A stretch of DNA of 32,000 bases from Patescibacteria group bacterium. Lineage in GTDB: Bacteria > Patescibacteriota > Minisyncoccia > UBA6257 > HR35. The DNA lies in assembly GCA_030549845.1 (NCBI GenBank), contig JAUQQN010000001.1:270001-302000 (forward strand), read 5' to 3'. A program made the position numbers and the translations under genes. The notes below the pieces were generated by a model. The model had not been told where the DNA came from and did not search any database. It saw only the letters and a program-made list of their open reading frames with translations. Below are positions 5,291 through 30,651 of the stretch, piece by piece (the stretch's first letter is position 1; each line of letters starts with the position of its first letter).

Positions 5291-5913
5291 AAGAAATTTT
5301 TTACGGAATTTTCGTTCATCCGCTTGTAGTTATTCTTTTAACTATTTATTTGTTTTTGAATGATTTTGGAATCACGATAATTTTAATGAGTCTTTTGTTA
5401 AAAATATTTTTAAGTCCACTTTCTTTTTTACAATATTTGGAAGAGAAGAAACTAAAAAAAATACGGGAAAGAGTTAATAAGGAAACTATAAATATAAAAG
5501 ATTTTATAAAAAAAGTTGAAATTATGAATAAAATTTACGAAGAAGAAAAATTCAGTCCATTTAAAAATATTTTGATTAACTTTTCTTTAATTCCATTTTA
5601 CTTAGGAGCAATTCTAGCAATTTATGAATTAGTTAAAACAATCCCAAACGCTTTATTTTTGAATTATGTAAATTTACTAAAACCGAATATTTATCTGGCT
5701 TTTATCACAACATTTTTTAATTTTTATTATGCTTATAACCAACCAGGAGAAAATAGGAAAATTATGTTTTTTATTTTTGGAGTGCTTTCAGTAATACTTT
5801 TTACTTTACCATCCTTTTTAATTTTATATATATTAACTTCGATTATTTTGAGTTTTTTAGAGAGAAAGATTTTCGATTGGTACTACGTAAAGTTTATTAT
5901 CAAATCTGTTTAA
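5287..5913 (+). CDS. yidC: Membrane protein insertase YidC/Oxa1 family (short form)
   Basis: Polytopic membrane protein whose first TM segment resembles the YidC core (GITIILMSLLLKIFLSPLSFLQ), followed by a basic loop. It has an ATGA overlap with rnpA, and the synteny is canonical. Confidence 0.75.
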   Translation: MKEIFYGIFVHPLVVILLTIYLFLNDFGITIILMSLLLKIFLSPLSFLQYLEEKKLKKIRERVNKETINIKDFIKKVEIMNKIYEEEKFSPFKNILINFSLIPFYLGAILAIYELVKTIPNALFLNYVNLLKPNIYLAFITTFFNFYYAYNQPGENRKIMFFIFGVLSVILFTLPSFLILYILTSIILSFLERKIFDWYYVKFIIKSV

Positions 5914-6936
5914 AAATATTACACCTAAAGGAGTTATAACAGGTTGTAAAATATCAAATTTTCCATCTAAATCAAAATACTTAAGTTCGTTTTTAATTGG
6001 ATCAAAAATTACTAATCTATCATTAAAGTTTTCTTTGTAATAATACCACCTTGTTAAATCAGTGATAGACTGATTTAAGGGAACGCCACAAACAAGCTTT
6101 GTTTTAAATGTACATTTTTCTTTTAATGTTCCAAAATTGAATTCTTTAAGTTTAATCCCTTTTGAGTTAATTAAATAACTTTTCCATTCTTTTTCTAATA
6201 AAGAAACAAAAATCAAGTCTTTTTTGTTAGATAATGCACTTAAATTAATGCCATTTTCTAATAAAATTGTTTTTTCTCCTCTTTTGTTAATAAGAATTAA
6301 TGGTGAAGAATATGTATATTTTAAGTTTTCATAAACTAAGATACCATTCTCAATTACATCAAACTCAGGGTTTAAAATATAAATATCTACAAAAGGTTCT
6401 AGAGATTTTTTAAAGGTTGCTAAATAAGAAAATTCATTTGTTAATACATAGATATATAAATCATCTCCATACCAAAATGTTTTTTTAGTGCTTCTTGGAA
6501 GTTTTTCTATTCTATCTTTTGTGGTATCTAATAAATAATAATCTTCATCTTTTTTAAAAATAATTTTCGTTTTTGAATTAGAAAAAGAGATATTTTTAAT
6601 ACCCTCTTTTTTATAAAATTCTTTATAAGTTTTATCTTCTATATTTATTTCTTTAATAGTTTTTGACTCTGGATCATAAGCATATATATAAGGATAATCT
6701 ATTTCAGGATATAATAAAATTTTTTCATAAAGAATATTAGGTTTTTTTACTTCTTTTTGTTCAATTCCTCCAACCGAAGGAGAAGGCTCTTCGATACTTT
6801 CTTCTATAGTTTTTTCTTCTGTTATTTTAATTTCCTCAGGTTGTTTTGGTTTCAATTCTTTATAAAAGTAAAAAATAAAGCTTATGAATAAGATCAAAAC
6901 TAAAACGAAGAAAATTTTTTTAACTGTACCTATCAT
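5857..6936 (-). CDS. Hypothetical N-terminally membrane-anchored protein, last gene of the T4SS-like operon
   Basis: A TM helix (IFFVLVLILFISFIFYFY) is followed by an acidic linker and a large Tyr/Lys/Asn-rich domain that looks beta-rich. The 4-nt overlap with the upstream gene implies co-translation. No family is recognised. Confidence 0.7.
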   Translation of the reverse strand: MIGTVKKIFFVLVLILFISFIFYFYKELKPKQPEEIKITEEKTIEESIEEPSPSVGGIEQKEVKKPNILYEKILLYPEIDYPYIYAYDPESKTIKEINIEDKTYKEFYKKEGIKNISFSNSKTKIIFKKDEDYYLLDTTKDRIEKLPRSTKKTFWYGDDLYIYVLTNEFSYLATFKKSLEPFVDIYILNPEFDVIENGILVYENLKYTYSSPLILINKRGEKTILLENGINLSALSNKKDLIFVSLLEKEWKSYLINSKGIKLKEFNFGTLKEKCTFKTKLVCGVPLNQSITDLTRWYYYKENFNDRLVIFDPIKNELKYFDLDGKFDILQPVITPLGVIFLNRFDNKLYVVPIENLSL

Positions 6937-7565
6937 TTTTTTCTTTTTATAAAATAAATTATAAGAACAAAAACCAAAATAGCCCCAATTGTTGCTAAAG
7001 TTATCAAAAAAATATTAGAGAAAATTTTAGAAGGCAAGGGAATTTCTTTTTCAGTAGTTTTTGTTACCACTTTAAATTGTGTGGTTATAGGAACTAACTC
7101 CTTTATTGGTTGAGAAAATGGATAATTTGGGTTTTTTGCTGTTTTACAATCTAAGGGACATAAATTTTCTTCTCCTGGTTCACATATATTATTTTCATTA
7201 CAAATTGTTAACCCTGATAAATCTAAATTTTCTTTTTGGTTATTTTTTGCATTGATTAGTTCTATTTTACTTAAATTTAAATAATTAGGAATTGTAATAA
7301 AATCAAAATAAGGTTCATTACTGGGAGAAAAATAAATTATATCAATAATCTGATTTTTAGTGTTATAAATTAAAAGCAAATAATCTTTGCCATTTCTATT
7401 TACAGTTTCATTACTGTTATTTGAATATTCTGCTCCTTTAAAATAATTGAATTTTATTTCATTATTTTCTTTAATAAAATAGATAGTTAAAAATTTAGGA
7501 AATTCTGTTTCTCCCGTTTCGCTTTCTTCAAGTTCTTCAGGTAAAATTGTTAATATTTTTTTCAT
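6933..7565 (-). CDS. Hypothetical protein with a C-terminal TM anchor and a 4-Cys motif
   Basis: The C-terminal hydrophobic helix is followed by KRKK (IFLITLATIGAILVFVLIIYFIKRKK). A Cys cluster CNENNICEPGEENLCPLDC is present. No obvious N-terminal signal peptide. It lies within the operon. Confidence 0.65.
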   Translation of the reverse strand: MKKILTILPEELEESETGETEFPKFLTIYFIKENNEIKFNYFKGAEYSNNSNETVNRNGKDYLLLIYNTKNQIIDIIYFSPSNEPYFDFITIPNYLNLSKIELINAKNNQKENLDLSGLTICNENNICEPGEENLCPLDCKTAKNPNYPFSQPIKELVPITTQFKVVTKTTEKEIPLPSKIFSNIFLITLATIGAILVFVLIIYFIKRKK

Positions 7566-7579
7566 AGATTTATTTTAAA

Positions 7580-8674
7580 TTACTTAAGGTTAACTTTACC
7601 AATTTTACAGACTGTTATATAAGAAGGTTTTATTGATGTGGCATTATTTAAATCTCCTTTACCGAAACCAGCAAATAGATCCAACCAAGCATCAGCTCCA
7701 TTTTTTAACCCACCACCTGTATCAGTAACTATCAAAATTTTACTGAAATTAGGATTACAAGAAATTTGAGTCCCATCTTTTTTATTGCACGCTAAAACCT
7801 TTAGGATATCAAAAGCATTAAAAACCATATCATTTCTATTATGAGCTACAGTTATAAGAGGAATTAATGGGCCATAACTTCCATAAATTTTCCCAGTAAA
7901 TGACTTTCCAACACTATCTGCTGTAGTTATAGCTTTGTTTTCATCTAAAACATCTTTGTTCTTAATTGATTCTTTTTGGGATGACATTGCTGCAGGACAA
8001 TTATGAGGAGGATTTCCTGTGACTTTAATCCAAGTCCATTTCCAACCATATCTACATTTATCTAATTCTTCCCCTGATTTTTTAGATTCATTTAAAATTT
8101 GTATCCCATCCAAGGCATTTAATACTTTCTTTGTTCCAGCAGATCCAAATAACCCTGTTCCTTGCAGGGTGACATCAGAAGAAAACTTATGCCAATTATA
8201 TGTATCTTCATAAAAAGGAATATAATAAGTTGTTAATCTAACCAAATAATTTTTAGATTTACATTCTCTTTGTTGTAATTGATTTATTTCTTCTTGCGGA
8301 ATTCCTGTAACAGATATGGTGTAATCTAAATAATTTATAGTAGTAGTGGTAACAGCAACATTTATTGATGGAAGTTGAATGTTAATTATTTTAAACATTA
8401 TTAATCTTGCATTAAATATTTCTGGGTTTATCCAATAAAGCAAAACACCAGAAGAAAAAATAACAATTAAGCCTATAATAGAATTTCTCATCTGTCTTTT
8501 GCCTTCCATTTTTATATCAGGCACAACACTTAATAAGTTCTTAAAAGCTCCTATAAAAAACATAATAAAAGCAATAACAACAGCTAAAGCTACTATTAAG
8601 TTATAAATAGCTTGAATACATCCTTGTATAGTAACACAACTTGAAGCAATAAACTGTTGTATATCTGGTATCAT
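7580..8674 (-). CDS. Fusion protein: VirB2/TrbC-like two-TM pilin-like hairpin plus an MltA/3D-domain-type lytic transglycosylase (functional VirB1/PrgK analogue)
   Basis: The N-terminus has two hydrophobic helices separated by a short basic loop (IYNLIVALAVVIAFIMFFIGAF ... GKRQMRNSIIGLIVIFSSGVLLYWI), as in TrbC/VirB2-type pilins. The C-terminus resembles MltA motifs: LTTYYIPFYED (cf. TGYYEP), VTLQGTG (cf. IQGSG) and VTDTGGGLKNGADAWLDLFAGFG (cf. the 3D-domain DTGGAIKG..DLF.G.G). These matches are from memory and were not computed. Confidence 0.6.
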   Translation of the reverse strand: MIPDIQQFIASSCVTIQGCIQAIYNLIVALAVVIAFIMFFIGAFKNLLSVVPDIKMEGKRQMRNSIIGLIVIFSSGVLLYWINPEIFNARLIMFKIINIQLPSINVAVTTTTINYLDYTISVTGIPQEEINQLQQRECKSKNYLVRLTTYYIPFYEDTYNWHKFSSDVTLQGTGLFGSAGTKKVLNALDGIQILNESKKSGEELDKCRYGWKWTWIKVTGNPPHNCPAAMSSQKESIKNKDVLDENKAITTADSVGKSFTGKIYGSYGPLIPLITVAHNRNDMVFNAFDILKVLACNKKDGTQISCNPNFSKILIVTDTGGGLKNGADAWLDLFAGFGKGDLNNATSIKPSYITVCKIGKVNLK

Positions 8675-9285
8675 TTTTCTATTTTTATTTGGTCTGAGCT
8701 AAATTCAATTGGATTATCTATATTTGTAACAATAACCTTTACTTCGCTTCCATTTTCGAGCCCTTCGGGATCAAATAAAAGGCTGTAATAAAATTTATTA
8801 AAAACATTCCAAGCAATTGATAAGTTATCTGAAGAAAAATTAAATGTCAAAGGAAAAAGTTTTTCATTTTTTTCGATTCTTCCAAAAGGCAAAACTACAT
8901 TAAGTTCTTCTAAGTACCTTACAATAGAAACAGCAGGCAAATTTTTTTGTTTAAAAACAAAACTATATTTCTTGTCAAAACTTAAATCATTTGAATAAAT
9001 TCTTACTTTTCCTGAAAGAAGTTTATTTTTTGATTCGAAGTGCAAAAGTGGTTTATGGGTCTCATACGTTGCTTGGCTTCCTTCAAAAAATAATACCCAT
9101 TCATAATTTAATAAATCAGGCTTATATTTAGAAAAATCTGCTTCAATTCCTATTAAATACTTATCTCCATTTTTCTGAAACGAAAAATAAGCAAAATCTT
9201 TTTGAGAAAAAACAAGGCTATAAGAAAAAAGCGAGAAAATAAAAATTATGAGTAAAATTTTAATAAATTGTGAATTAATTTTCAT
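8671..9285 (-). CDS. Hypothetical secreted/anchored protein (start trimmed to an internal Met)
   Basis: The ORF-track start at 9381 would overlap the upstream gene by 79 nt. The Met at 9285 gives a classic signal peptide or anchor (MKINSQFIKILLIIFIFSLFSYSLVFSQ). The mature part looks beta-rich. It has a 4-nt overlap with the downstream gene. Confidence 0.65.
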   Translation of the reverse strand: MKINSQFIKILLIIFIFSLFSYSLVFSQKDFAYFSFQKNGDKYLIGIEADFSKYKPDLLNYEWVLFFEGSQATYETHKPLLHFESKNKLLSGKVRIYSNDLSFDKKYSFVFKQKNLPAVSIVRYLEELNVVLPFGRIEKNEKLFPLTFNFSSDNLSIAWNVFNKFYYSLLFDPEGLENGSEVKVIVTNIDNPIEFSSDQIKIEK

Positions 9286-9302
9286 AAAATTATTATAAAA
9301 TA

Positions 9303-9842
9303 TCAAATGGTTTCTCCAATTACTTCTTCTTGTTGCTTTTTTACTTCTTTCTTTAATGACCTTAATCTTTTCACTCTCCAAAGCCTTCCTCTAGAAACTA
9401 GCATTGTTAATGTTTTTATTGGAGCAATTTCTATTAAGCTTCCTATTATTGGAATAAAACCAAAGAATTCTATCGCAACTAAGAAAACATAAACACCTCC
9501 TTCAATTTGAGAAAGGTATCCATTTTTAGTATAATAAAATATCAAATATAAAAACAGTAAGGCTCCAGGTATCTCAAAAATCAAAGGAATGATTCCTAAA
9601 ATACTTAAAGCTCCTGCACTTGCTAACCCTATTATACTAAATATAAATTCAAAAATATCTGCTGTTATTAATAAAATAAAGCTTAGATACCAAATCCAGC
9701 TTATATAATGAGGTTCTTCCTCTTCTTCAGTTGTCTCTTCAAATTTTTTTAATCTTCCTGATTTTTGTAAATAATCTTCTTTTTTCTCTTCGGTGTAATC
9801 TAATTTTTTAATTTCAGAATTTGTTTCAAACACTGCCTTCAT
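9303..9842 (-). CDS. Hypothetical polytopic membrane protein (about 4 TM) with an acidic N-terminal tail
   Basis: The acidic N-terminus (TTEEEEEPH) is followed by four hydrophobic segments and a basic C-terminal tail. It has an ATGA overlap with the stop of the virB4-like gene. Confidence 0.65.
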   Translation of the reverse strand: MKAVFETNSEIKKLDYTEEKKEDYLQKSGRLKKFEETTEEEEEPHYISWIWYLSFILLITADIFEFIFSIIGLASAGALSILGIIPLIFEIPGALLFLYLIFYYTKNGYLSQIEGGVYVFLVAIEFFGFIPIIGSLIEIAPIKTLTMLVSRGRLWRVKRLRSLKKEVKKQQEEVIGETI

Positions 9843-11635
9843 TGATTTTTCAAAGCTTCTTTTATTGCCATTAATTGCTCTAGGGAAGCTTTAATTATTT
9901 GATCTTCAGCATAAGATGCTAAAACATACAAAGGAATTCTTTTAAGACCAGCAATTAAAATTCCTCTTCCTCTTTCAGCTTGTATTAAAAATCTTTTTTC
10001 GCCTTCAGATAAGGCAAATACTTGGCCTACTGTATCAATTGTTGTTGGTGATTGTTTCATTAAAAATGTAAGTGCAGAGTTTGTAATTATAGGCTTACCA
10101 TAAGGAGAGCTCAAAAAATCATCTATATCTTGAGTTATTGTGGTTATTCCTAAAAGATATTTCCTACCTCTTTTTATTGCATTAAGCAAAAAATTAGCAC
10201 CTGATTCATTTTTCATTATCCACCATGCTTCATCTATTATTAAAATTCTTTTCTTTCTTTCTCTTCTTATTTTATTCATTAAATCATTCAAAACAATATA
10301 CATACCAATAGGTCTTAACTCTTCTACTAAATCTTTAAACCCAAAAACAACTATTCTCTTTTTAAGATCAACATTTGTTGGTTGATTAATAAAACCACTA
10401 AAACTACCCTGAGTAAATGGATATAATTTTTCAGCTATAGACTTACCTCCTTCTATACTTAAAAGAACTTTTTCTAAGTCATTTAATGTAGGGAAAACTT
10501 CTATTTTTCCAAAATCTGTATCAGGTAAAATATTAAAGGAAGCATACGTTTGGCTTATTGCTCTATCTAATATAGTAAGTTCTTCTGCGTTAAATTTCTC
10601 ACCTGCTATAACTTCTAAAAGTCCAATTATATCACTAACTTTTTCTTTGTATACATCTTCAGGATTTTCTCCCTCAAGTAAAGGAGGTAAATCAAGAGGG
10701 TTAATTTTGTGCTCTGATCTTAAAGAAATTGGTATAAAAGATCCTCCATAAACTTCAGCTATTGATTGATATTCATTTTCTGGGTCTAACACAATGACAT
10801 CTTGCCCCATCATTAGATTTCTCATAATTTCAATTTTTGCAGTATAACTTTTACCTGATCCTGATCTTGCTAAAATTACCATATGAGCATTCTCAAAAGC
10901 AAATCTATCGAGAAGAACCAGGGAGTTGTCTTGCAAATTAATACCCATCAAAATTCCTTTTTCCATAGACAATTCTGATGAGATAAATGGGAAAAATGAA
11001 CTTGCGGCAGATGAGTTCATTACATATTCTATTTGAAGTCTATTAGAATTAAGAGGTAGTGTTGAAAAGAAAGCATCTTCTTGTTCAAATATAATTGGTT
11101 TTGCAACAATTAAATTACTTTCTAAAATTTTTATAATTCTTTTTTCTTTTAATAATAATTCATCTTTATCTTCAGAAAATATAGTAAGATATAAAGCAAC
11201 ATTAAATATCTTTTCTCTTCCTTGTACTATAGCATCCCTTAATTCCTCTATATCATTGTAGGCTGTTTCAAGTTGTGGGTCTCTAGGCAAGCCTTTTTCT
11301 TCAATTTCTATTAATTGACTTTCTACTCTTAAAAGCTGTTTTTGTAATTGCTTAAGAATAACTCCAGGATCTCTAGGAACAAAATAAATCGAAAGATTAA
11401 AAGGCTCTTCTAATGCTAAAAGATTTTCTAACCAACCAGCAAACAAAAATCTTGGATAAGTAATTATAGCTATAACCTTTCCATAAACTTCTCCTATTTG
11501 AAAATCAGATACCCCAAATAAAGCTCCTGGAGGGGCTATTATATTTTTTATTTTCTCAAAACCTTTTGCCTCCTCGATTTTAACGATAGGAATCCCTTTA
11601 TTTGTTTGTTGGAAAAATGGTAATTTGAATGCCAT
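9839..11635 (-). CDS. virB4: VirB4/TrbE/TraC-family type IV secretion ATPase, C-terminal 598-aa portion including the motor domain
   Basis: Contains Walker A (ILARSGSGKSYTAK), Walker B (RILIIDEAWWIM) and a downstream TQ..D motif (GITTITQDIDDF). The N-terminal stretch (ITYPRFLFAGWLENLL ... LSIYFVPRD ... FEQEDAFFSTLPLN) is typical of monoderm VirB4 homologues. Confidence 0.88.
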   Translation of the reverse strand: MAFKLPFFQQTNKGIPIVKIEEAKGFEKIKNIIAPPGALFGVSDFQIGEVYGKVIAIITYPRFLFAGWLENLLALEEPFNLSIYFVPRDPGVILKQLQKQLLRVESQLIEIEEKGLPRDPQLETAYNDIEELRDAIVQGREKIFNVALYLTIFSEDKDELLLKEKRIIKILESNLIVAKPIIFEQEDAFFSTLPLNSNRLQIEYVMNSSAASSFFPFISSELSMEKGILMGINLQDNSLVLLDRFAFENAHMVILARSGSGKSYTAKIEIMRNLMMGQDVIVLDPENEYQSIAEVYGGSFIPISLRSEHKINPLDLPPLLEGENPEDVYKEKVSDIIGLLEVIAGEKFNAEELTILDRAISQTYASFNILPDTDFGKIEVFPTLNDLEKVLLSIEGGKSIAEKLYPFTQGSFSGFINQPTNVDLKKRIVVFGFKDLVEELRPIGMYIVLNDLMNKIRRERKKRILIIDEAWWIMKNESGANFLLNAIKRGRKYLLGITTITQDIDDFLSSPYGKPIITNSALTFLMKQSPTTIDTVGQVFALSEGEKRFLIQAERGRGILIAGLKRIPLYVLASYAEDQIIKASLEQLMAIKEALKNQ

Positions 11636-12264
11636 TATTCCTCTAATGACTCTATTAATTCTTCAAACAATTTTATTGGAGCAAGCCCCCATCTTAAGCT
11701 AGGATTGTACATCTCATACAAAAGCTGCAAAAGTTCATAATTATTTAATCTTATTGGTTGAAGTCCAATAGCAGAAAGTTTTTCTGTTATATAAATAACC
11801 CTAGTCTCTAATTGCTCTAATTTTGTATAAAATTCCTCTTCTTTAATTTTTGTTTTTTTACCAAATTTTTTTATTTCAATTACTTCTCCCTCATATGGTA
11901 CAACAATATAAAATATTTTTTTCATTATTTTGTGGGTTTCTACATAGCTTTGTATAAATTTAATGTATTCTTCTAGTTGTAATTTAATCAATGGTTCATC
12001 TTCTACTTCAAGTCTTTCTTTTAAGTAATTTAAATAACCCTCTATATACGCATACCTTGAAACAACTAATATTTGTAAATTAAAATCTAGCCCATCTAGA
12101 AATTCTTTAAAAGCACCAACTACTGCTTCCTTTTCTTGTTCTGAAAGTAATGTAAAATTAATTCCCGGAACAGCTAAAATAGCTCTTAAACTTCCATCTT
12201 CTAATATAAGAGTGTCATTTTTTATATCTTTTACTTGTATTAAAGATGCAGTTGTTTTTACCAT
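11635..12264 (-). CDS. VirB4 N-terminal domain-like protein (209 aa), apparently a split-off N-terminus of the VirB4 ATPase
   Basis: The sequence (IQVKDIKNDTLILEDGSLRAILAVPGINFTLLSEQEKEAVVGAFKEFLDGLDFNLQILVVSR) resembles the extreme N-terminus of ~800-aa Firmicutes-type VirB4 proteins. Its stop overlaps the next ATG as TAATG. The two parts sum to 209 + 598 = 807 aa. Confidence 0.6.
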   Translation of the reverse strand: MVKTTASLIQVKDIKNDTLILEDGSLRAILAVPGINFTLLSEQEKEAVVGAFKEFLDGLDFNLQILVVSRYAYIEGYLNYLKERLEVEDEPLIKLQLEEYIKFIQSYVETHKIMKKIFYIVVPYEGEVIEIKKFGKKTKIKEEEFYTKLEQLETRVIYITEKLSAIGLQPIRLNNYELLQLLYEMYNPSLRWGLAPIKLFEELIESLEE

Positions 12265-12785
12265 CTTCTTTTAGGAAATTTTGGAATAGGGAAATTAATA
12301 TAAGGATTAAAAGGATTATAACCTCTTTCTATAGCTTTTTTTACATATACAGCTAAAGATTTATTTACTTCTTTTTCTTCTTTTGGTTTTTCATAACTTA
12401 CAAGAGGGAGCTCTTTTTGTGTTTCAGTTTCTGTTATTTCTTCTAATTCAATATATTTTTCTAAGAGAGGAGATTTTATATATTGAGTAGTAATTTTAAC
12501 TTCTTCTTTCCATATATATTTTTTAGGAGATAATAGAATCATGATAAGTTTTGGAAGAAAGGCATAAATATATTTATTATTTATTTTCAACCAACCTATA
12601 ATAAAAGCTGCTAAAACAATAATTCCAGAAAGAAATACTGCAATAAAGCCACCAAATAATTTAAATGTAGCAAAGGATAACAAAAATGCCCCAAAACTTA
12701 TAAAAAGCTGAGGAAATGTAAAAGAAATCATTCCTAAACGTAATTTATCTTCTATTGTTATATATTGTGGTACACTAAATCTCAT
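12258..12785 (-). CDS. PrgI-family / VirB3-like small membrane protein
   Basis: The N-terminus (MRFSVPQYITIEDKLRLGMISFTFPQLF) is followed by two TM helices, the pattern of PrgI-family proteins. It sits directly upstream of virB4, as prgI-prgJ and virB3-virB4 do. Confidence 0.6.
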   Translation of the reverse strand: MRFSVPQYITIEDKLRLGMISFTFPQLFISFGAFLLSFATFKLFGGFIAVFLSGIIVLAAFIIGWLKINNKYIYAFLPKLIMILLSPKKYIWKEEVKITTQYIKSPLLEKYIELEEITETETQKELPLVSYEKPKEEKEVNKSLAVYVKKAIERGYNPFNPYINFPIPKFPKRRW

Positions 12786-12793
12786 TAAAATAA

Positions 12794-13432
12794 TTATAAA
12801 TTAGAAAGATCTAAAACTTCTCCCTCTTTTTTTTCTTCTTTTGGTTTTTTGATTACCACAATTTTAGAAGATATATCCTCAGTTGGCTTAGGAGGCTCCC
12901 AAGAAATCGTTTGTTTTATATCAATTGTAGATTTAGGAACTTCTGTCTTTATTTGTTGGAGTTTAGATAAATCTATGGGAGTAGTTGGCTTAGGAACCTC
13001 GATTGCTTCTTTTGTTTTTACTACTTTTTGTAAATTTAGAATTTTTTGTGGTGGAACTTCTTTGGCTTTCTGTATTAGATCAATCACTTCTTTTGGCACT
13101 TCTTTTTTGATTTTTTGAGTCTTTTCTTTCTCTTCTTTCCATAATGGTTCTACAAGTGGCAGGAATCTTGCTTTTATATGATATTCTAATTGTTTAGCTT
13201 TTTCTGTATCATAATTTAATCTATTTCTAATAATTTCCGTTAAGCTTTCTTTTTCTAAATCAAATCTTTTTATTGCTAAATCTTGCAATAAATAAATAAA
13301 TTCAACCTCATATTCATCACTAATTTCAAATTTCTTTTTATATTCTTCAAAAAAAGAATAAAAATCATCAGAATATAAAAATTCTTTTACTCTATCTGGT
13401 GCTTCTGTATATGCATCTATAAATGATTTCAT
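12794..13432 (-). CDS. Hypothetical soluble protein with degenerate EVPK-type repeats in its C-terminal half
   Basis: No TM segment or signal peptide. The N-terminal domain is acidic and helical. The C-terminal half carries about five degenerate repeats (KEVPKEVIDLIQ / KEVPPQKILNLQ / EVPKPTTPIDLSKLQ / EVPKSTIDIKQ / EPPKPTEDISS). It lies within the operon. Confidence 0.7.
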   Translation of the reverse strand: MKSFIDAYTEAPDRVKEFLYSDDFYSFFEEYKKKFEISDEYEVEFIYLLQDLAIKRFDLEKESLTEIIRNRLNYDTEKAKQLEYHIKARFLPLVEPLWKEEKEKTQKIKKEVPKEVIDLIQKAKEVPPQKILNLQKVVKTKEAIEVPKPTTPIDLSKLQQIKTEVPKSTIDIKQTISWEPPKPTEDISSKIVVIKKPKEEKKEGEVLDLSNL

Positions 13433-13456: not shown

Positions 13457-15955
13457 TTATGTAGAACTTGCACCACCACCCCCTCCAGTAGATTGGGCTG
13501 ATTCAGATTTTTCTTTTTCTCTCGCCTCTTCTAGTGCCCGAATTCTTTCCTCAATTTCTTCTCTTTCTCTTCTAGCTTCTGCCCTATAAGGTCTTTCAAA
13601 AATCCCAGCAATCTTTTCAAGCAGAGGAGTTAATTCTTCGGGATTTGAAAGTTGGACACCTTGTTTTTGTATTAATTGTTGTAATTGTACGATTTCTTGT
13701 TGTAGGTCATGTATTTCTTCAAGTCTTTGCTGTAATTCGGTTTTTCTTTGGTTCAAGTTAATTTTTTCATCTTCACTTGCTCCTTGTATTTCCCCATCTA
13801 TGGCTTGTATTTCTTGGTTTAATGAATTAATTTCTCTACCTAGTTCTACTTCAATACCTTTTAATATCTGCTGTAGGTCTATTTTCCCAATAAGTTTTTG
13901 AGGATCTTTTGCCCAATCTTTTACTGTCTTATGTGATATTTCTCCTTGAGAATAAGAACCCATTAGTTGTCTTCTAATCTCTTCTTCTAATTTTGGTTGA
14001 AGCGTATCTGGTATTTTTTGGCCTCCAATCACTAACCTCTGAGCTATTTGTGGTCCTAGCTCTCTTATACTTCTTGCAGCTGGAGAAGCTCTAATAATTC
14101 CTTGAAGTCGTTGTGGACCTATATTTCTTTCGACATCTTGATAAATACCTAAATCATGTAAATACTTTAAATTCTTTGGATTCCAGAATATATCATTTAA
14201 ATCTCTACCAGAAGTAAACATAAAATAATTGGATAATAATGTTTTAACTTCAGCCTCATCTGCTCCAGCTTTTCTAAGTAAAGTTCCTATTGTTTCTAAT
14301 CCAACCTCGCGATGACTAATAATTTCTGGAAGGGTTGATAATACCTCAGCTCGTTTTTCTCTTCCTTCAGTAATTTTTGTTAAAATACATCTTAATTTCT
14401 TACCACATAATGCTTTACGAGTACTTAAATCTAATTTATCCCAATCCAAAATACTAGCAATTTTAAATAGTTCATCTGCACTTAGTTTTGAATTCATTAC
14501 TTTAGCTAATTCTTCTTTGAATGGTCCTCTATATCTTTCAAATATTCCAGCAATCTCTTCAGGGCTTTTACCTTCCATGTGGTCACTGAAAATAGCTTCA
14601 GCTTCTTTTTTAACTTTTTCCTTTGTTGGTTTTTCTAATTTTTCACCTACTCCTTTGGTCCATAACCCTAAACTTCTAATGAATCCAACCCTACTTTTTT
14701 CTAAAGCTTTTCCTATAGTAGAAATTCCTCCTCCTATTTTTGATATAGCTGGTCTTACTGTCCACATTCCTACTCCTGCTGCAGCAGCACCAGCCAATCT
14801 CCAACCTTTCAATGCCAATCCATAAGTATAATTTGCAAAAACACCTCCTAAACTTAAAGAAACTTTCATTACAATATAGAAATAAAGAACAAGGAAAACA
14901 AATTTAGTAGAGACAGCAAAGAAAATACTTAAAGTAGTTTTTTCACTTTCTTCTAGTCCTGCTATAGGTTCTGCTTCTAATGAAGGTTTCATTAAATTTT
15001 GTAATTTCTCTTCATTAAATGCACCAGTTATGCCTTCTGTTTTTGTTGTTGCAACTAAAGCTACTCCTATTAAAATTAAGACAATTAAAATCAAAACATT
15101 GACTGTCCAATTTAGAAACCATTGCCACCAAGTATTCCAATATTTTTCATATCCAGGTGTTGCATATGCTATAGCAGCTAAAGGAAGTAAGCCTGCTAAA
15201 AATCCAATAATAAAGTATCTTCCAATAAATATTCCCACAAAAGACCACAAAGTAAGAGAAAATATAAGAGAAAGAACTATACCTACTAAATTAGCTACTA
15301 TATTTAATGCTCTTCTTAAAGCTGCTGCTTGATCTGGAGTTAGATCAGTTTGATATTTAGTAGCATTTTCAATCATTCCTTTTAATTGTTCTGTTATAAA
15401 ACCTGGAGGTACAGCATTAAATATTGCATAAATCAATGTACCTAATTTTGAAGAGTTATAATTTTCAGTCATTAAATTTGCAGAAAGCAAAATACTTCTT
15501 TGTATAAAATTGATTGTTCCAAAAAATACTTTTGCTAAAAGAAACGAAAAGTTTATTAAAAATGCTATAAGTATTACACCGAATAAAATCCTTCTCGCCT
15601 GGTCTTCTTTATTTAAGATCCAATTAATTCCTGAATATAATGCTAAAAATACTAAAATTACATAAGATAGATTTTTGAAGAATTCCCATAAAAATGATGC
15701 AAGCCCTCCTTCTTCAAATGGATTTAAAACGCTGAATATGTCTATAATAATTCTTGCTAGTCTTGCGAAGATATTAAAAAGAAAAATCACTCCGGTTAAA
15801 ACAATATAAGATACATAATCTATTATTCCAAAAACAAGCGCAGGAATTTTAGCCCAGAAATAATATCCTAATAAGCCTAATCCCAAAGCTCCAAGTAAAC
15901 TTAGCCCTATAACTACCCAAACCACTGCTTTATTTTTTAATTTTTGATTTTTCAT
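13457..15955 (-). CDS. VirB6/TrbL/PrgH-like polytopic membrane protein with a ~430-aa hydrophilic coiled-coil C-terminal extension
   Basis: The first ~400 aa contain roughly 8 hydrophobic helices with Trp-rich loops (YWNTWWQWFLNW). The remainder is charged and helical with heptad-like Gln/Glu/Leu stretches, and it ends in STGGGGGASST. Its position upstream of the PrgI-like and VirB4 genes mirrors prgH-prgI-prgJ. Confidence 0.6.
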   Translation of the reverse strand: MKNQKLKNKAVVWVVIGLSLLGALGLGLLGYYFWAKIPALVFGIIDYVSYIVLTGVIFLFNIFARLARIIIDIFSVLNPFEEGGLASFLWEFFKNLSYVILVFLALYSGINWILNKEDQARRILFGVILIAFLINFSFLLAKVFFGTINFIQRSILLSANLMTENYNSSKLGTLIYAIFNAVPPGFITEQLKGMIENATKYQTDLTPDQAAALRRALNIVANLVGIVLSLIFSLTLWSFVGIFIGRYFIIGFLAGLLPLAAIAYATPGYEKYWNTWWQWFLNWTVNVLILIVLILIGVALVATTKTEGITGAFNEEKLQNLMKPSLEAEPIAGLEESEKTTLSIFFAVSTKFVFLVLYFYIVMKVSLSLGGVFANYTYGLALKGWRLAGAAAAGVGMWTVRPAISKIGGGISTIGKALEKSRVGFIRSLGLWTKGVGEKLEKPTKEKVKKEAEAIFSDHMEGKSPEEIAGIFERYRGPFKEELAKVMNSKLSADELFKIASILDWDKLDLSTRKALCGKKLRCILTKITEGREKRAEVLSTLPEIISHREVGLETIGTLLRKAGADEAEVKTLLSNYFMFTSGRDLNDIFWNPKNLKYLHDLGIYQDVERNIGPQRLQGIIRASPAARSIRELGPQIAQRLVIGGQKIPDTLQPKLEEEIRRQLMGSYSQGEISHKTVKDWAKDPQKLIGKIDLQQILKGIEVELGREINSLNQEIQAIDGEIQGASEDEKINLNQRKTELQQRLEEIHDLQQEIVQLQQLIQKQGVQLSNPEELTPLLEKIAGIFERPYRAEARREREEIEERIRALEEAREKEKSESAQSTGGGGGASST

Positions 15956-23914: not shown

Positions 23915-23986
23915 TGCGGCTGGGAGGATTCGAACCTCCGACCTGGTGTTTATAAGACACCCGCTCTACCACTGAGCTACAGCCGC
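23915..23986 (-). tRNA. tRNA-Ile (anticodon UAU)
   Basis: The reverse complement folds as GCGGCTG-TA-GCTC-AGTGGTA-GAGC-G-GGTGT-CTTATAA-ACACC-AGGTC-GGAGG-TTCGAAT-CCTCC-CAGCCGC-A. The anticodon loop CT-TAT-AA gives UAU, which reads AUA. No CCA is encoded. Confidence 0.85.
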
Positions 23987-30532: not shown

Positions 30533-30651
30533 GTCCCTTGTGGCTGTATAGCTGGGTTGGAACCACCCCTTTCCATTCCGAACAGGCAGGTGAAACGGCC
30601 CAGCGCCGATGGTAGTGCCCTTGAGGCGCGAGAGTAGGTGCTGCAAGGGAC
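30533..30651 (+). rRNA. rrf: 5S ribosomal RNA (stand-alone, not adjacent to 23S)
   Basis: This is a GC-rich island in AT-rich DNA. Terminal helix I pairs GTCCCTTG..GGC with GC..CAAGGGAC. Conserved 5S blocks are present: CCATTCCGAACAGGCAGGTGAAAC, AGCGCCGATGGTAGTG and GAGAGTAGG. Confidence 0.92.

Follow-up and report, generated by a model that had tools for sequence, protein, structure and literature searches.

A VirB2-like pilin module joined to a predicted MltA-type wall-cutting domain in a type IV secretion operon of a Patescibacteria group bacterium

How does a type IV secretion system (T4SS) of a Patescibacteria cell get through the wall? VirB2-like genes are odd for monoderms; they are present in most Patescibacteria T4SS loci, from which a recognisable VirB1 is absent (PMC12102498), and a survey of 2025 concluded that pilus biogenesis in these organisms may not need VirB1 (PMC12102498). 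The T4SSs and pilins of Patescibacteria (candidate phyla radiation, CPR) are essential for epibiotic growth (PMC10633639, PMC12857230). The question is raised here by a single gene within a 32,000 nucleotide stretch of a Patescibacteria group bacterium genome (contig JAUQQN010000001.1, positions 270,001 to 302,000; hereafter the window). The gene, at 7580..8674 on the reverse strand, encodes a protein of 364 amino acids (aa), which had originally been predicted to be a TrbC/VirB2-type pilin hairpin fused to an MltA/3D-type lytic transglycosylase, tethered at a T4SS channel. In the list of open reading frames (ORFs) it begins with ATG and its stop codon lies at 7580-7582; 4 nucleotides (nt; ATGA) are shared between its start and the stop of the gene before it, and inspection of the ORF showed that no upstream extension is possible.

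The interpretation that we consider probable is that this protein is a membrane-tethered equivalent of VirB1, the dedicated wall-opening enzyme of its T4SS. We regard it as a T4SS-associated wall hydrolase whose fold class and manner of attachment are both new. In at least one lineage the wall-cutting function would then be built into a VirB2-like protein, which may explain the "missing" T4SS wall hydrolase. A dedicated role in the T4SS is the most likely one because the gene occupies a fixed place in the operon and no VirB1 of the SLT, CHAP or LytM type is detectable there.

The N-terminal part of the protein is related to VirB2-like pilins. A Pfam search matched residues 15-82 (8429..8632; this and all other features of the gene are on the reverse strand) to PF18895, T4SS_pilin, with a score of 34.8 bits against a gathering cut-off of 26.6 (E = 1.8e-8; 68 of 71 model positions covered). 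The same model is matched by 29 of 31 complete relatives, and close relatives also touch the TrbC/VirB2 model PF04956 weakly. The two hydrophobic helices around a basic loop that formed part of the original prediction are indeed present. An uncharged tail of residues 1-22 (8609..8674), which contains no lysine or arginine and is predicted to lie outside the membrane, is followed by the first transmembrane helix, residues 23-45 (8540..8608), where the Kyte-Doolittle hydropathy in 19-residue windows reaches 3.06. The basic loop, residues 46-63 (…KMEGKRQMR; 8486..8539), is predicted by the positive-inside rule to be cytoplasmic: four Lys/Arg are found in NLLSVVPDIKMEGKRQMR, and across residues 46-66 there are four Lys/Arg against two Asp/Glu. 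The second transmembrane helix, residues 64-84 (8423..8485), was placed by hydropathy and invariant columns and ends in an invariant LYWINP. By the same rule both termini of the protein are predicted to lie outside the membrane. A first AlphaFold2 model, of low confidence, also shows a helical hairpin, with a helix at residues 16-48. Alignments A1 and A5 place a conserved junction (EIFNARLIMF) and a beta-rich linker at residues 85-135 (8270..8422), the low-confidence model having strands at 105-113 and 116-124. The module is well conserved; 39 of its approximately 100 positions are invariant, and the cysteine pair C13/C19 is present in every sequence that covers both.

No signal peptide was found at the N-terminus of the 364 aa protein. 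The possibility that the N-terminus is merely a signal peptide was rejected, because hydropathy shows a pair of hydrophobic segments, of which the first lacks a basic n-region. Furthermore, the module is not itself a signal peptide, because close paralogues place a classical signal peptide ahead of the same module. The protein differs equally from a small, leader-cleaved pilin with a mature length of some 70-100 aa, since it has 364 residues, no leader and a C-terminal extension of 280 residues. When the pilin module alone was used in a large protein search, the sole return was an 85 aa database protein (P0112) that corresponds to residues 1-85 of the window protein.

Residues 136-364 (7583..8269) form the predicted MltA-type double-psi beta-barrel domain, assigned from AlphaFold2, Foldseek and hhalign and containing six invariant cysteines. 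A good AlphaFold2 model (predicted local distance difference test, pLDDT, 86.6; predicted template modelling score, pTM, 0.85) was obtained from alignment A4, which holds the C-terminal domain alone in 11 family rows together with two unambiguous fragments of P0018, a 3D-domain protein. The full-length model, built from 8 sequences, reached a pLDDT of 51 and its Foldseek matches were meaningless. When the domain model was compared with the PDB using Foldseek, ranks 1-14 were exclusively MltA-family lytic transglycosylases, those of E. coli, A. baumannii, C. crescentus, B. pseudomallei, A. tumefaciens and N. gonorrhoeae (probability 0.90-1.00, best E = 2.8e-5), and the match that followed them was an expansin-type barrel. 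The structural comparison is therefore as expected from the prediction of an MltA-like fold. A viral structure library gave nothing significant, so that a phage origin is not indicated.

At the level of sequence the kinship with MltA and 3D proteins is transitive. P0018 was found by the family profile A2 at E = 5.1e-6 (HMMER, 1.84 billion representatives), and itself matches Pfam 3D (3.5e-17), E. coli MltA (1.7e-6) and YuiC (1.6e-4). Comparison of the family with P0018 gave an hhalign probability of 97.2% over 146 columns in both halves of the barrel, taking in the N-terminal strand (RVRTTAYYTP...VKLQGSG) as well as the end that reads DTGG...IDVY...GKEELNKA. With a generic 3D-domain alignment, mostly YabE-like, the probability was 39% and the C-terminal motif alone was aligned; the 3D link depends on P0018 because P0018 also shares the N-terminal barrel strand. 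A second transitive link is provided by L041, a pilin-module protein with a direct Pfam 3D match. Taken with the model, it appears that the C-terminal domain is a branch of the MltA/3D fold family that is invisible to hidden Markov models (HMMs). In the model, an insertion of about 90 residues (175-265; 7880..8152), recognised from its secondary structure, separates the halves of the barrel at the place that domain B occupies in MltA. P0018 and L041, which are compact relatives, lack this insertion, and with two-domain MltA the Foldseek alignments extend over 265-287 columns. No SLT/GH23, CHAP/NlpC-P60 or LytM domain was matched by Pfam in the window protein. P0018 shares a near-identical single-transmembrane N-terminal anchor (MSEFRPI[IV]SIVL...QILKKG) with P0020 and P0021; this anchor carries a 3D domain, an SLT domain (PF01464) and an unannotated domain, and is a separate instance of interchangeable wall-cutting domains on a common anchor.

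The motifs on which the MltA/3D assignment had been founded were all located, LTTYYIPFYED at residues 147-157, VTLQGTG at 168-174 and VTDTGGGLKNGADAWLDLFAGFG at 316-338. Conservation was assessed in 19 distinct sequences whose C-terminal domains share 32-100% identity (median 48%). The N-terminal barrel strand, residues 143-153 (YLVRLTTYYIP; 8216..8248), aligns with "RVRTTAYYTP" of P0018 and carries T148, equivalent to T99 of MltA and T91 of YuiC, and Y150, equivalent to Y93 of YuiC. The equivalent of the 3D domain, residues 266-364 (7583..7879), was delimited from alignments to fragments of E. coli MltA and B. pseudomallei LtgG and from the model strands; within it lie D318 (codon 7721-7723), corresponding to D297 of MltA and D151 of YuiC, and D332 (codon 7679-7681), catalytic by homology and corresponding to D308 of MltA and D162 of YuiC. 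All four residues, and the six cysteines of the domain, are invariant in 19/19. In the D-[TV]-G-G motif, G320 is present in 19/19, G321 in 16/19 and G322 in 18/19. In YuiC and MltA it is the third aspartate (D162/D308) that is the catalytic acid, rather than the first; the threonine (T91/T99) orients it and the tyrosine (Y93) may assist (PMC4499186). The match to the pilin and MltA families is not a matter of chance, because PF18895 scores above its cut-off and T148, Y150, D318 and D332 remain invariant over this range of identity.

The first aspartate of the 3D motif (D261 in MltA, D129 in YuiC) is a different matter. From the model we infer that its place is taken by N279 (codon 7838-7840), at which Asp is found in two of the 19 sequences and Asn in the remainder; L041 has a proline at this position. 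The register that pairs TVAHN with S(I/V)A(V/S)D was chosen because it fits the model strands, the spacing and the pairwise alignments with MltA and LtgG; the spacing to D318 is 39 residues, as against 36 in MltA. An alternative register, with "VIPL" of the 3D proteins on "LIPL" of the family, was preferred by MAFFT and hhalign and was rejected. The conservation foreseen for the catalytic aspartates therefore holds for D318 and D332 and fails for the first.

The setting of the gene in a T4SS operon, which had also been proposed, is clear. Twelve tightly packed or overlapping genes run on the reverse strand from 19916 to 5857, and the pilin-enzyme gene lies at the distal end in the slot "up179 - up236 - [pilin-enzyme] - down210 - down359" (5857..9842), with gene overlaps of 4 nt. 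Upstream is a split VirB4 (9839..12264; PF19044, PF12846, PF03135), comprising an N-terminal part at 11635-12264 and the ATPase at 9839-11635, then a PrgI/VirB3-like gene at 12258-12785 (PrgI match, E = 0.0014), a 212 aa protein at 12794-13432 and an 832 aa polytopic protein at 13457-15955. This last is putatively VirB6-like, an assignment made only on its numerous hydrophobic stretches and its place in the gene order; it had no HMM match. The slot order, VirB4 - 179 aa - ~205 aa - [pilin-enzyme] - ~210 aa - ~360 aa with yidC/rnpA/rpmH/dnaA/dnaN coming next, is kept in five loci (L001-L004 and L015), and an identical gene order is seen in 14 metagenome loci, which makes about 19 loci altogether from divergent lineages. 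A Pfam search of the operon proteins revealed no second wall hydrolase. In the window, yidC, dnaA, dnaN and a class A penicillin-binding protein lie just past the operon end; a T4SS beside the replication origin has already been described in Patescibacteria (PMC12102498). The two VirB4 halves, of 209 aa and 598 aa, overlap by one base, and the split is kept in all related loci, where the small N-terminal ORF carries a TraC-like annotation.

Relatives of the full-length protein are few. The family comprises 11 database sequences (43-48% identical, most of them full length) and 9 metagenomic ones, and a scan of a genome collection gave one match among 185,579 species representatives. Pilin modules, 54-70% identical, joined to other C-termini came up in the first protein search as well: Peptidase_C39_2, Peptidase_M15_4 and an unannotated domain bearing an H-x6-D...H-x-H motif. 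Scanning of metagenomes with the module alignment A5 yielded 33 loci, and all 31 complete proteins from it, 281-373 aa in length, consist of the module and an enzyme-sized extension; a free pilin of this module subfamily was not found among them. By C-terminal class, nine of the 31 are MltA-type, six Peptidase_C39_2, four an unknown "class X", four VanY/M15, three LAS-like (plus one variant), two M15_4 and one YkuD, and one (L041) has the compact domain with the direct 3D match. These classes fall into two slots. The T4SS slot holds the MltA-type (9), compact 3D (1) and class X (4) proteins, and the slot immediately downstream of glyS holds the C39_2, VanY, LAS-like, M15_4 and YkuD proteins. 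The first slot is one for predicted glycan cutters, the second one for peptidases. The glyS placement applies to every peptidase-type contig that reaches upstream; L018, L042 and the fragment L046 are too short for upstream context. The glyS-locus paralogues examined carry a signal peptide ahead of the pilin module. Catalytic residues in the alternative cassettes were checked by eye for the LAS-type H-x6-D / H-x-H motif only, and the P0009-type domain has sub-threshold similarity to the Hedgehog/LAS zinc-peptidase motif.

Class X (about 235 aa; alignment A7) has an invariant LLxTExGGHxC...GRGxYxFAxFGIEWGR and gave no Pfam or PDB sequence match. Its four copies (L016:880-1581, L024:3289-3999, L037:3289-4017 and L039:3289-4017) stand in the T4SS slot where the MltA-type domain would otherwise follow the same module. 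The domain is probably also wall-cutting, and may be a new glycan-cleaving domain. One C39_2 paralogue (L008 / P0011, GCA_039801685.1) is deposited on a 2.9 kb contig as "candidate division WOR-3 bacterium", which reflects either a mis-binned contig or the unsettled taxonomy of the lineage.

The pilin module behaves as a unit at the DNA level. A 229 nt pilin-module cassette lies at 8392..8620 (reverse strand), and its 3' end, at about codon 94-96, is the point at which catalytic domains are exchanged. A glyS-locus paralogue (L010/L017) is 98.3% identical in nucleotides over exactly these 229 nt (window 8620-8392), with no similarity outside. The DNA of L016 is 99.66% identical to window 9268-8392, that is, the upstream gene and the pilin module, and unrelated beyond 8392, where it encodes class X in place of the MltA-type domain. 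A comparable exchange is seen at the glyS locus between L009 and L013, where the flanks are 95-98% identical and the cassettes unrelated (C39_2 vs M15_4); the downstream flank is 98% identical between these two alleles. Recombination thus has a junction at the module's end (…IFNARLIM[FY]), where the near-identical sequence stops and beyond which the cassettes differ. Between paralogues within a lineage the modules are 92-98% identical, as against 63-75% between orthologous MltA-type proteins, and module identity clusters by lineage, not by catalytic type. From these comparisons, co-resident paralogues appear to undergo concerted evolution of their modules. Contigs bearing the module are often very short (L010, L016, L017 and L018 are 1.1-1.7 kb). 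Assemblies probably break at the repeated, polymorphic cassette, and surveys may therefore undercount or truncate pilin-module genes.

A mechanism can be proposed on this basis. The VirB2-like module is predicted to insert as two helices, N-out/C-out with the basic loop in the cytoplasm, and this hairpin would place the disulfide-stabilised double-psi beta-barrel outside the membrane. By homology to D308 of MltA and D162 of YuiC, D332 would cleave the bond between N-acetylmuramic acid (MurNAc) and N-acetylglucosamine (GlcNAc), leaving 1,6-anhydro-MurNAc ends; D318 would bind the -2 sugar, and T148 and Y150 would position the catalytic aspartate. The pilin module might hold the enzyme at the VirB3/VirB4/VirB6 translocon, or feed it into it. 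The pilin-anchored peptidase of the glyS locus, with its lineage-matched module, probably supplies the peptide cutting, so that the glycosidase-plus-peptidase logic of PrgK, TraG and CwlT, T4SS hydrolases of Gram-positive bacteria that bear both activities on one polypeptide, would, by analogy, be split over two. Domain, topology, conservation, synteny and modularity evidence leads to this scheme; from it we infer the catalysis, the contacts with partners and which wall is cut, that of the cell itself or that of its host. The two-locus arrangement and the cassette swaps give testable hypotheses on wall breaching, own or host, and on host range.

Several observations weigh against a dedicated, VirB1-like enzyme. 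Residues 136-364 match no MltA/3D HMM or PDB sequence directly (E <= 10) in Pfam, NCBIfam, PHROGs or PDB sequences, whether searched with the single sequence or with the family profile; the proposed MltA/3D relationship stands by way of P0018 and fails in direct searches. The TM-scores (TMq) to MltA are moderate at 0.34-0.47, with a large root mean square deviation. The residue equivalences rest on sequence alignment and predicted strands, the register of N279 being the least certain as MAFFT and hhalign place this segment differently, and 17/19 sequences have Asn in place of the first 3D aspartate. The 280-residue extension sets the protein apart from every characterised VirB2 pilin, and six operon proteins are unannotated and could hide another hydrolase. 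Finally, an enzyme directed against variable foreign walls would account for the swapping of cassettes between near-identical strains more readily than housekeeping assembly would.

This last point leads to the alternative that the protein is a host-directed weapon, in which the module polymerises into the T4SS pilus or caps it, its C-terminus facing outwards, and the displayed enzyme and its peptidase paralogues digest the wall of a host or prey cell instead of that of the producer. Cassettes are exchanged at both loci (L016; L009/L013), as is typical for variable targets, and most of the variable enzymes are peptidases. It is in the peptide part of peptidoglycan that hosts differ. Modules homogenised within a lineage and divergent between lineages are expected under co-assembly, all 31 complete members are fusions with no free pilin found, and the T4SS and pilins are essential for epibiotic growth. 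A predator is also known to use a secreted MltA-like enzyme on its prey (PMC10127604). However, a globular domain of about 30 kDa on every subunit would be unprecedented for VirB2-type pili, and the T4SS slot keeps its MltA-type cassette across lineages, at identities as low as 32%, in the manner of a housekeeping role; we regard the weapon as unlikely, though deserving of attention. The same degree of doubt attaches to a wider proposal: that the "VirB2-like pilin" is here no free pilin but a shared, gene-converted assembly module which loads interchangeable wall-degrading enzymes onto the T4SS, namely a conserved glycan cutter from the operon and a strain-variable peptidase from the glyS locus, with an enzyme-decorated pilus or channel tip drilling the host wall and cassettes swapped to match the peptidoglycan chemotype of the host. 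This is a speculative extension and we would not expect it to hold in full.

Alternatively, the hairpin could serve as an export carrier for an enzyme with no signal peptide of its own, a putative cut after the second helix (LYWINP-x-IF-x-ARLI) freeing a pilin of ordinary size and a soluble transglycosylase. T4SS pilins such as TrbC and VirB2 are trimmed at the C-terminus, the junction motif is invariant or nearly so across all catalytic classes and coincides with the recombination boundary, and the T4SS-slot proteins lack a signal peptide. Such a polyprotein is nevertheless distinctly improbable, given that no TraF/S26-type or other protease is detectable by Pfam in the operon, and that in the glyS-locus paralogues a signal peptide accompanies the module, so that the module is not required just for export. 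It is very unlikely that the barrel is a non-catalytic, wall-binding one that tethers the T4SS or pilin module to peptidoglycan: D332, D318 and T148/Y150 are invariant down to 32% identity, the catalytic role in YuiC and MltA belongs to the third aspartate (PMC4499186), and other occupants of the paralogous slot bear recognised wall-enzyme domains. What speaks for binding is the replacement of MltA D261 by N279 in 17/19 sequences and by Pro in L041; double-psi beta-barrels among the RlpA relatives and expansins do include binding-only members. The hairpin might, in the simplest case, be a generic signal-anchor that resembles a pilin by chance, on an ordinary housekeeping transglycosylase near T4SS genes. 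Short hydrophobic hairpins can give spurious HMM matches and 34.8 bits is modest, but the score exceeds the curated Pfam cut-off, 29 of 31 relatives match too and some also match TrbC/VirB2. Added to the same T4SS operon slot in some 19 loci of divergent lineages, and to a conservation of the module (39 invariant positions of about 100) beyond the need of a mere anchor, this makes the chance resemblance extremely unlikely.

Among known systems, the best structural matches of the proposed VirB1 equivalent are E. coli MltA and its relatives (GH102; PDB 2ae0, 2pi8, 7esj, 6qk4, 3czb, 2pnw and 2g5d). Like MltA it has a predicted double-psi beta-barrel split by an inserted domain, conserved equivalents of T99, D297 and D308, and a membrane-attached, extracytoplasmic location (predicted here). 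Unlike MltA it has no HMM-level sequence similarity that can be detected, six invariant cysteines, and Asn for the first "3D" aspartate; its insert has about 90 residues compared with about 130 in domain B, and whereas MltA is attached through a lipobox, the window protein is anchored by a two-helix pilin hairpin and encoded inside a T4SS operon. It shares the catalytic half-barrel motifs TxY ... DTGG ... xDxY with B. subtilis YuiC / Sps, P0018 and L041. The stand-alone 3D-domain proteins of the YuiC type are without the inserted domain; they carry either a signal peptide or a single-transmembrane anchor and are not associated with a T4SS. Bd3285 of Bdellovibrio is also MltA-type with a catalytic third aspartate and is used on prey (PMC10127604); it is a lipoprotein or secreted, without a pilin module and outside T4SS operons.

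With the VirB1-type hydrolases (VirB1, PrgK, TraG of pIP501, CwlT and TcpG) the protein has in common that a wall cutter is encoded in the T4SS cluster, and those of monoderms are also membrane-anchored. They combine glycan and peptide cutting, which here is apparently split over two pilin-anchored proteins. We know of no VirB1-type hydrolase that is MltA-type or fused to a pilin. The domains they use are SLT/GH23, muramidase, CHAP/NlpC-P60 or LytM, on ordinary transmembrane or signal anchors (PMC12857230). The resemblance to VirB2, TrbC and TraA, and to the "VirB2-like" pilins (PF18895) of Patescibacteria, lies in the HMM match, the hairpin with its basic loop and the position near virB4; canonical pilins, though, mature to about 7-10 kDa after removal of a leader, whereas the window protein has no leader and a 280-residue enzymatic extension. 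Polymorphic toxins likewise combine an N-terminal module that stays constant with a sharp recombination junction and with C-terminal enzymes that are unrelated in near-identical strains. The present proteins differ from them in having no cassette-specific downstream immunity gene, as judged from the shared downstream flank of the C39_2 and M15_4 alleles, and in that all cassettes are wall-active and not toxins of diverse kinds.

The fusion appears to be uncharacterised, as had been supposed: the literature search found no paper describing a pilin-hydrolase fusion, and it is unmentioned in the survey of Patescibacteria T4SSs, in a T4SS review of 2025 and in the Southlakia transposon sequencing (Tn-seq) paper, which between them treat VirB2-like pilins, the rarity of VirB1 and how essential the system is. 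Published surveys counted PF18895 matches as pilins and left such extensions unremarked (PMC12102498). With a predicted wall-cutting domain behind the pilin module, matches to PF18895 cannot be read as "pilins" unless their C-termini are checked.

Elsewhere in the window, the G+C content of which is about 27%, a lone 5S rRNA gene lies between an RNase H-like gene and ssb (30536-30649, forward strand), with no 16S or 23S gene present in the window. A tRNA-Ile gene with anticodon TAT, uncommon in bacteria, is found at 23915-23986 on the reverse strand and suggests decoding of AUA without lysidine.

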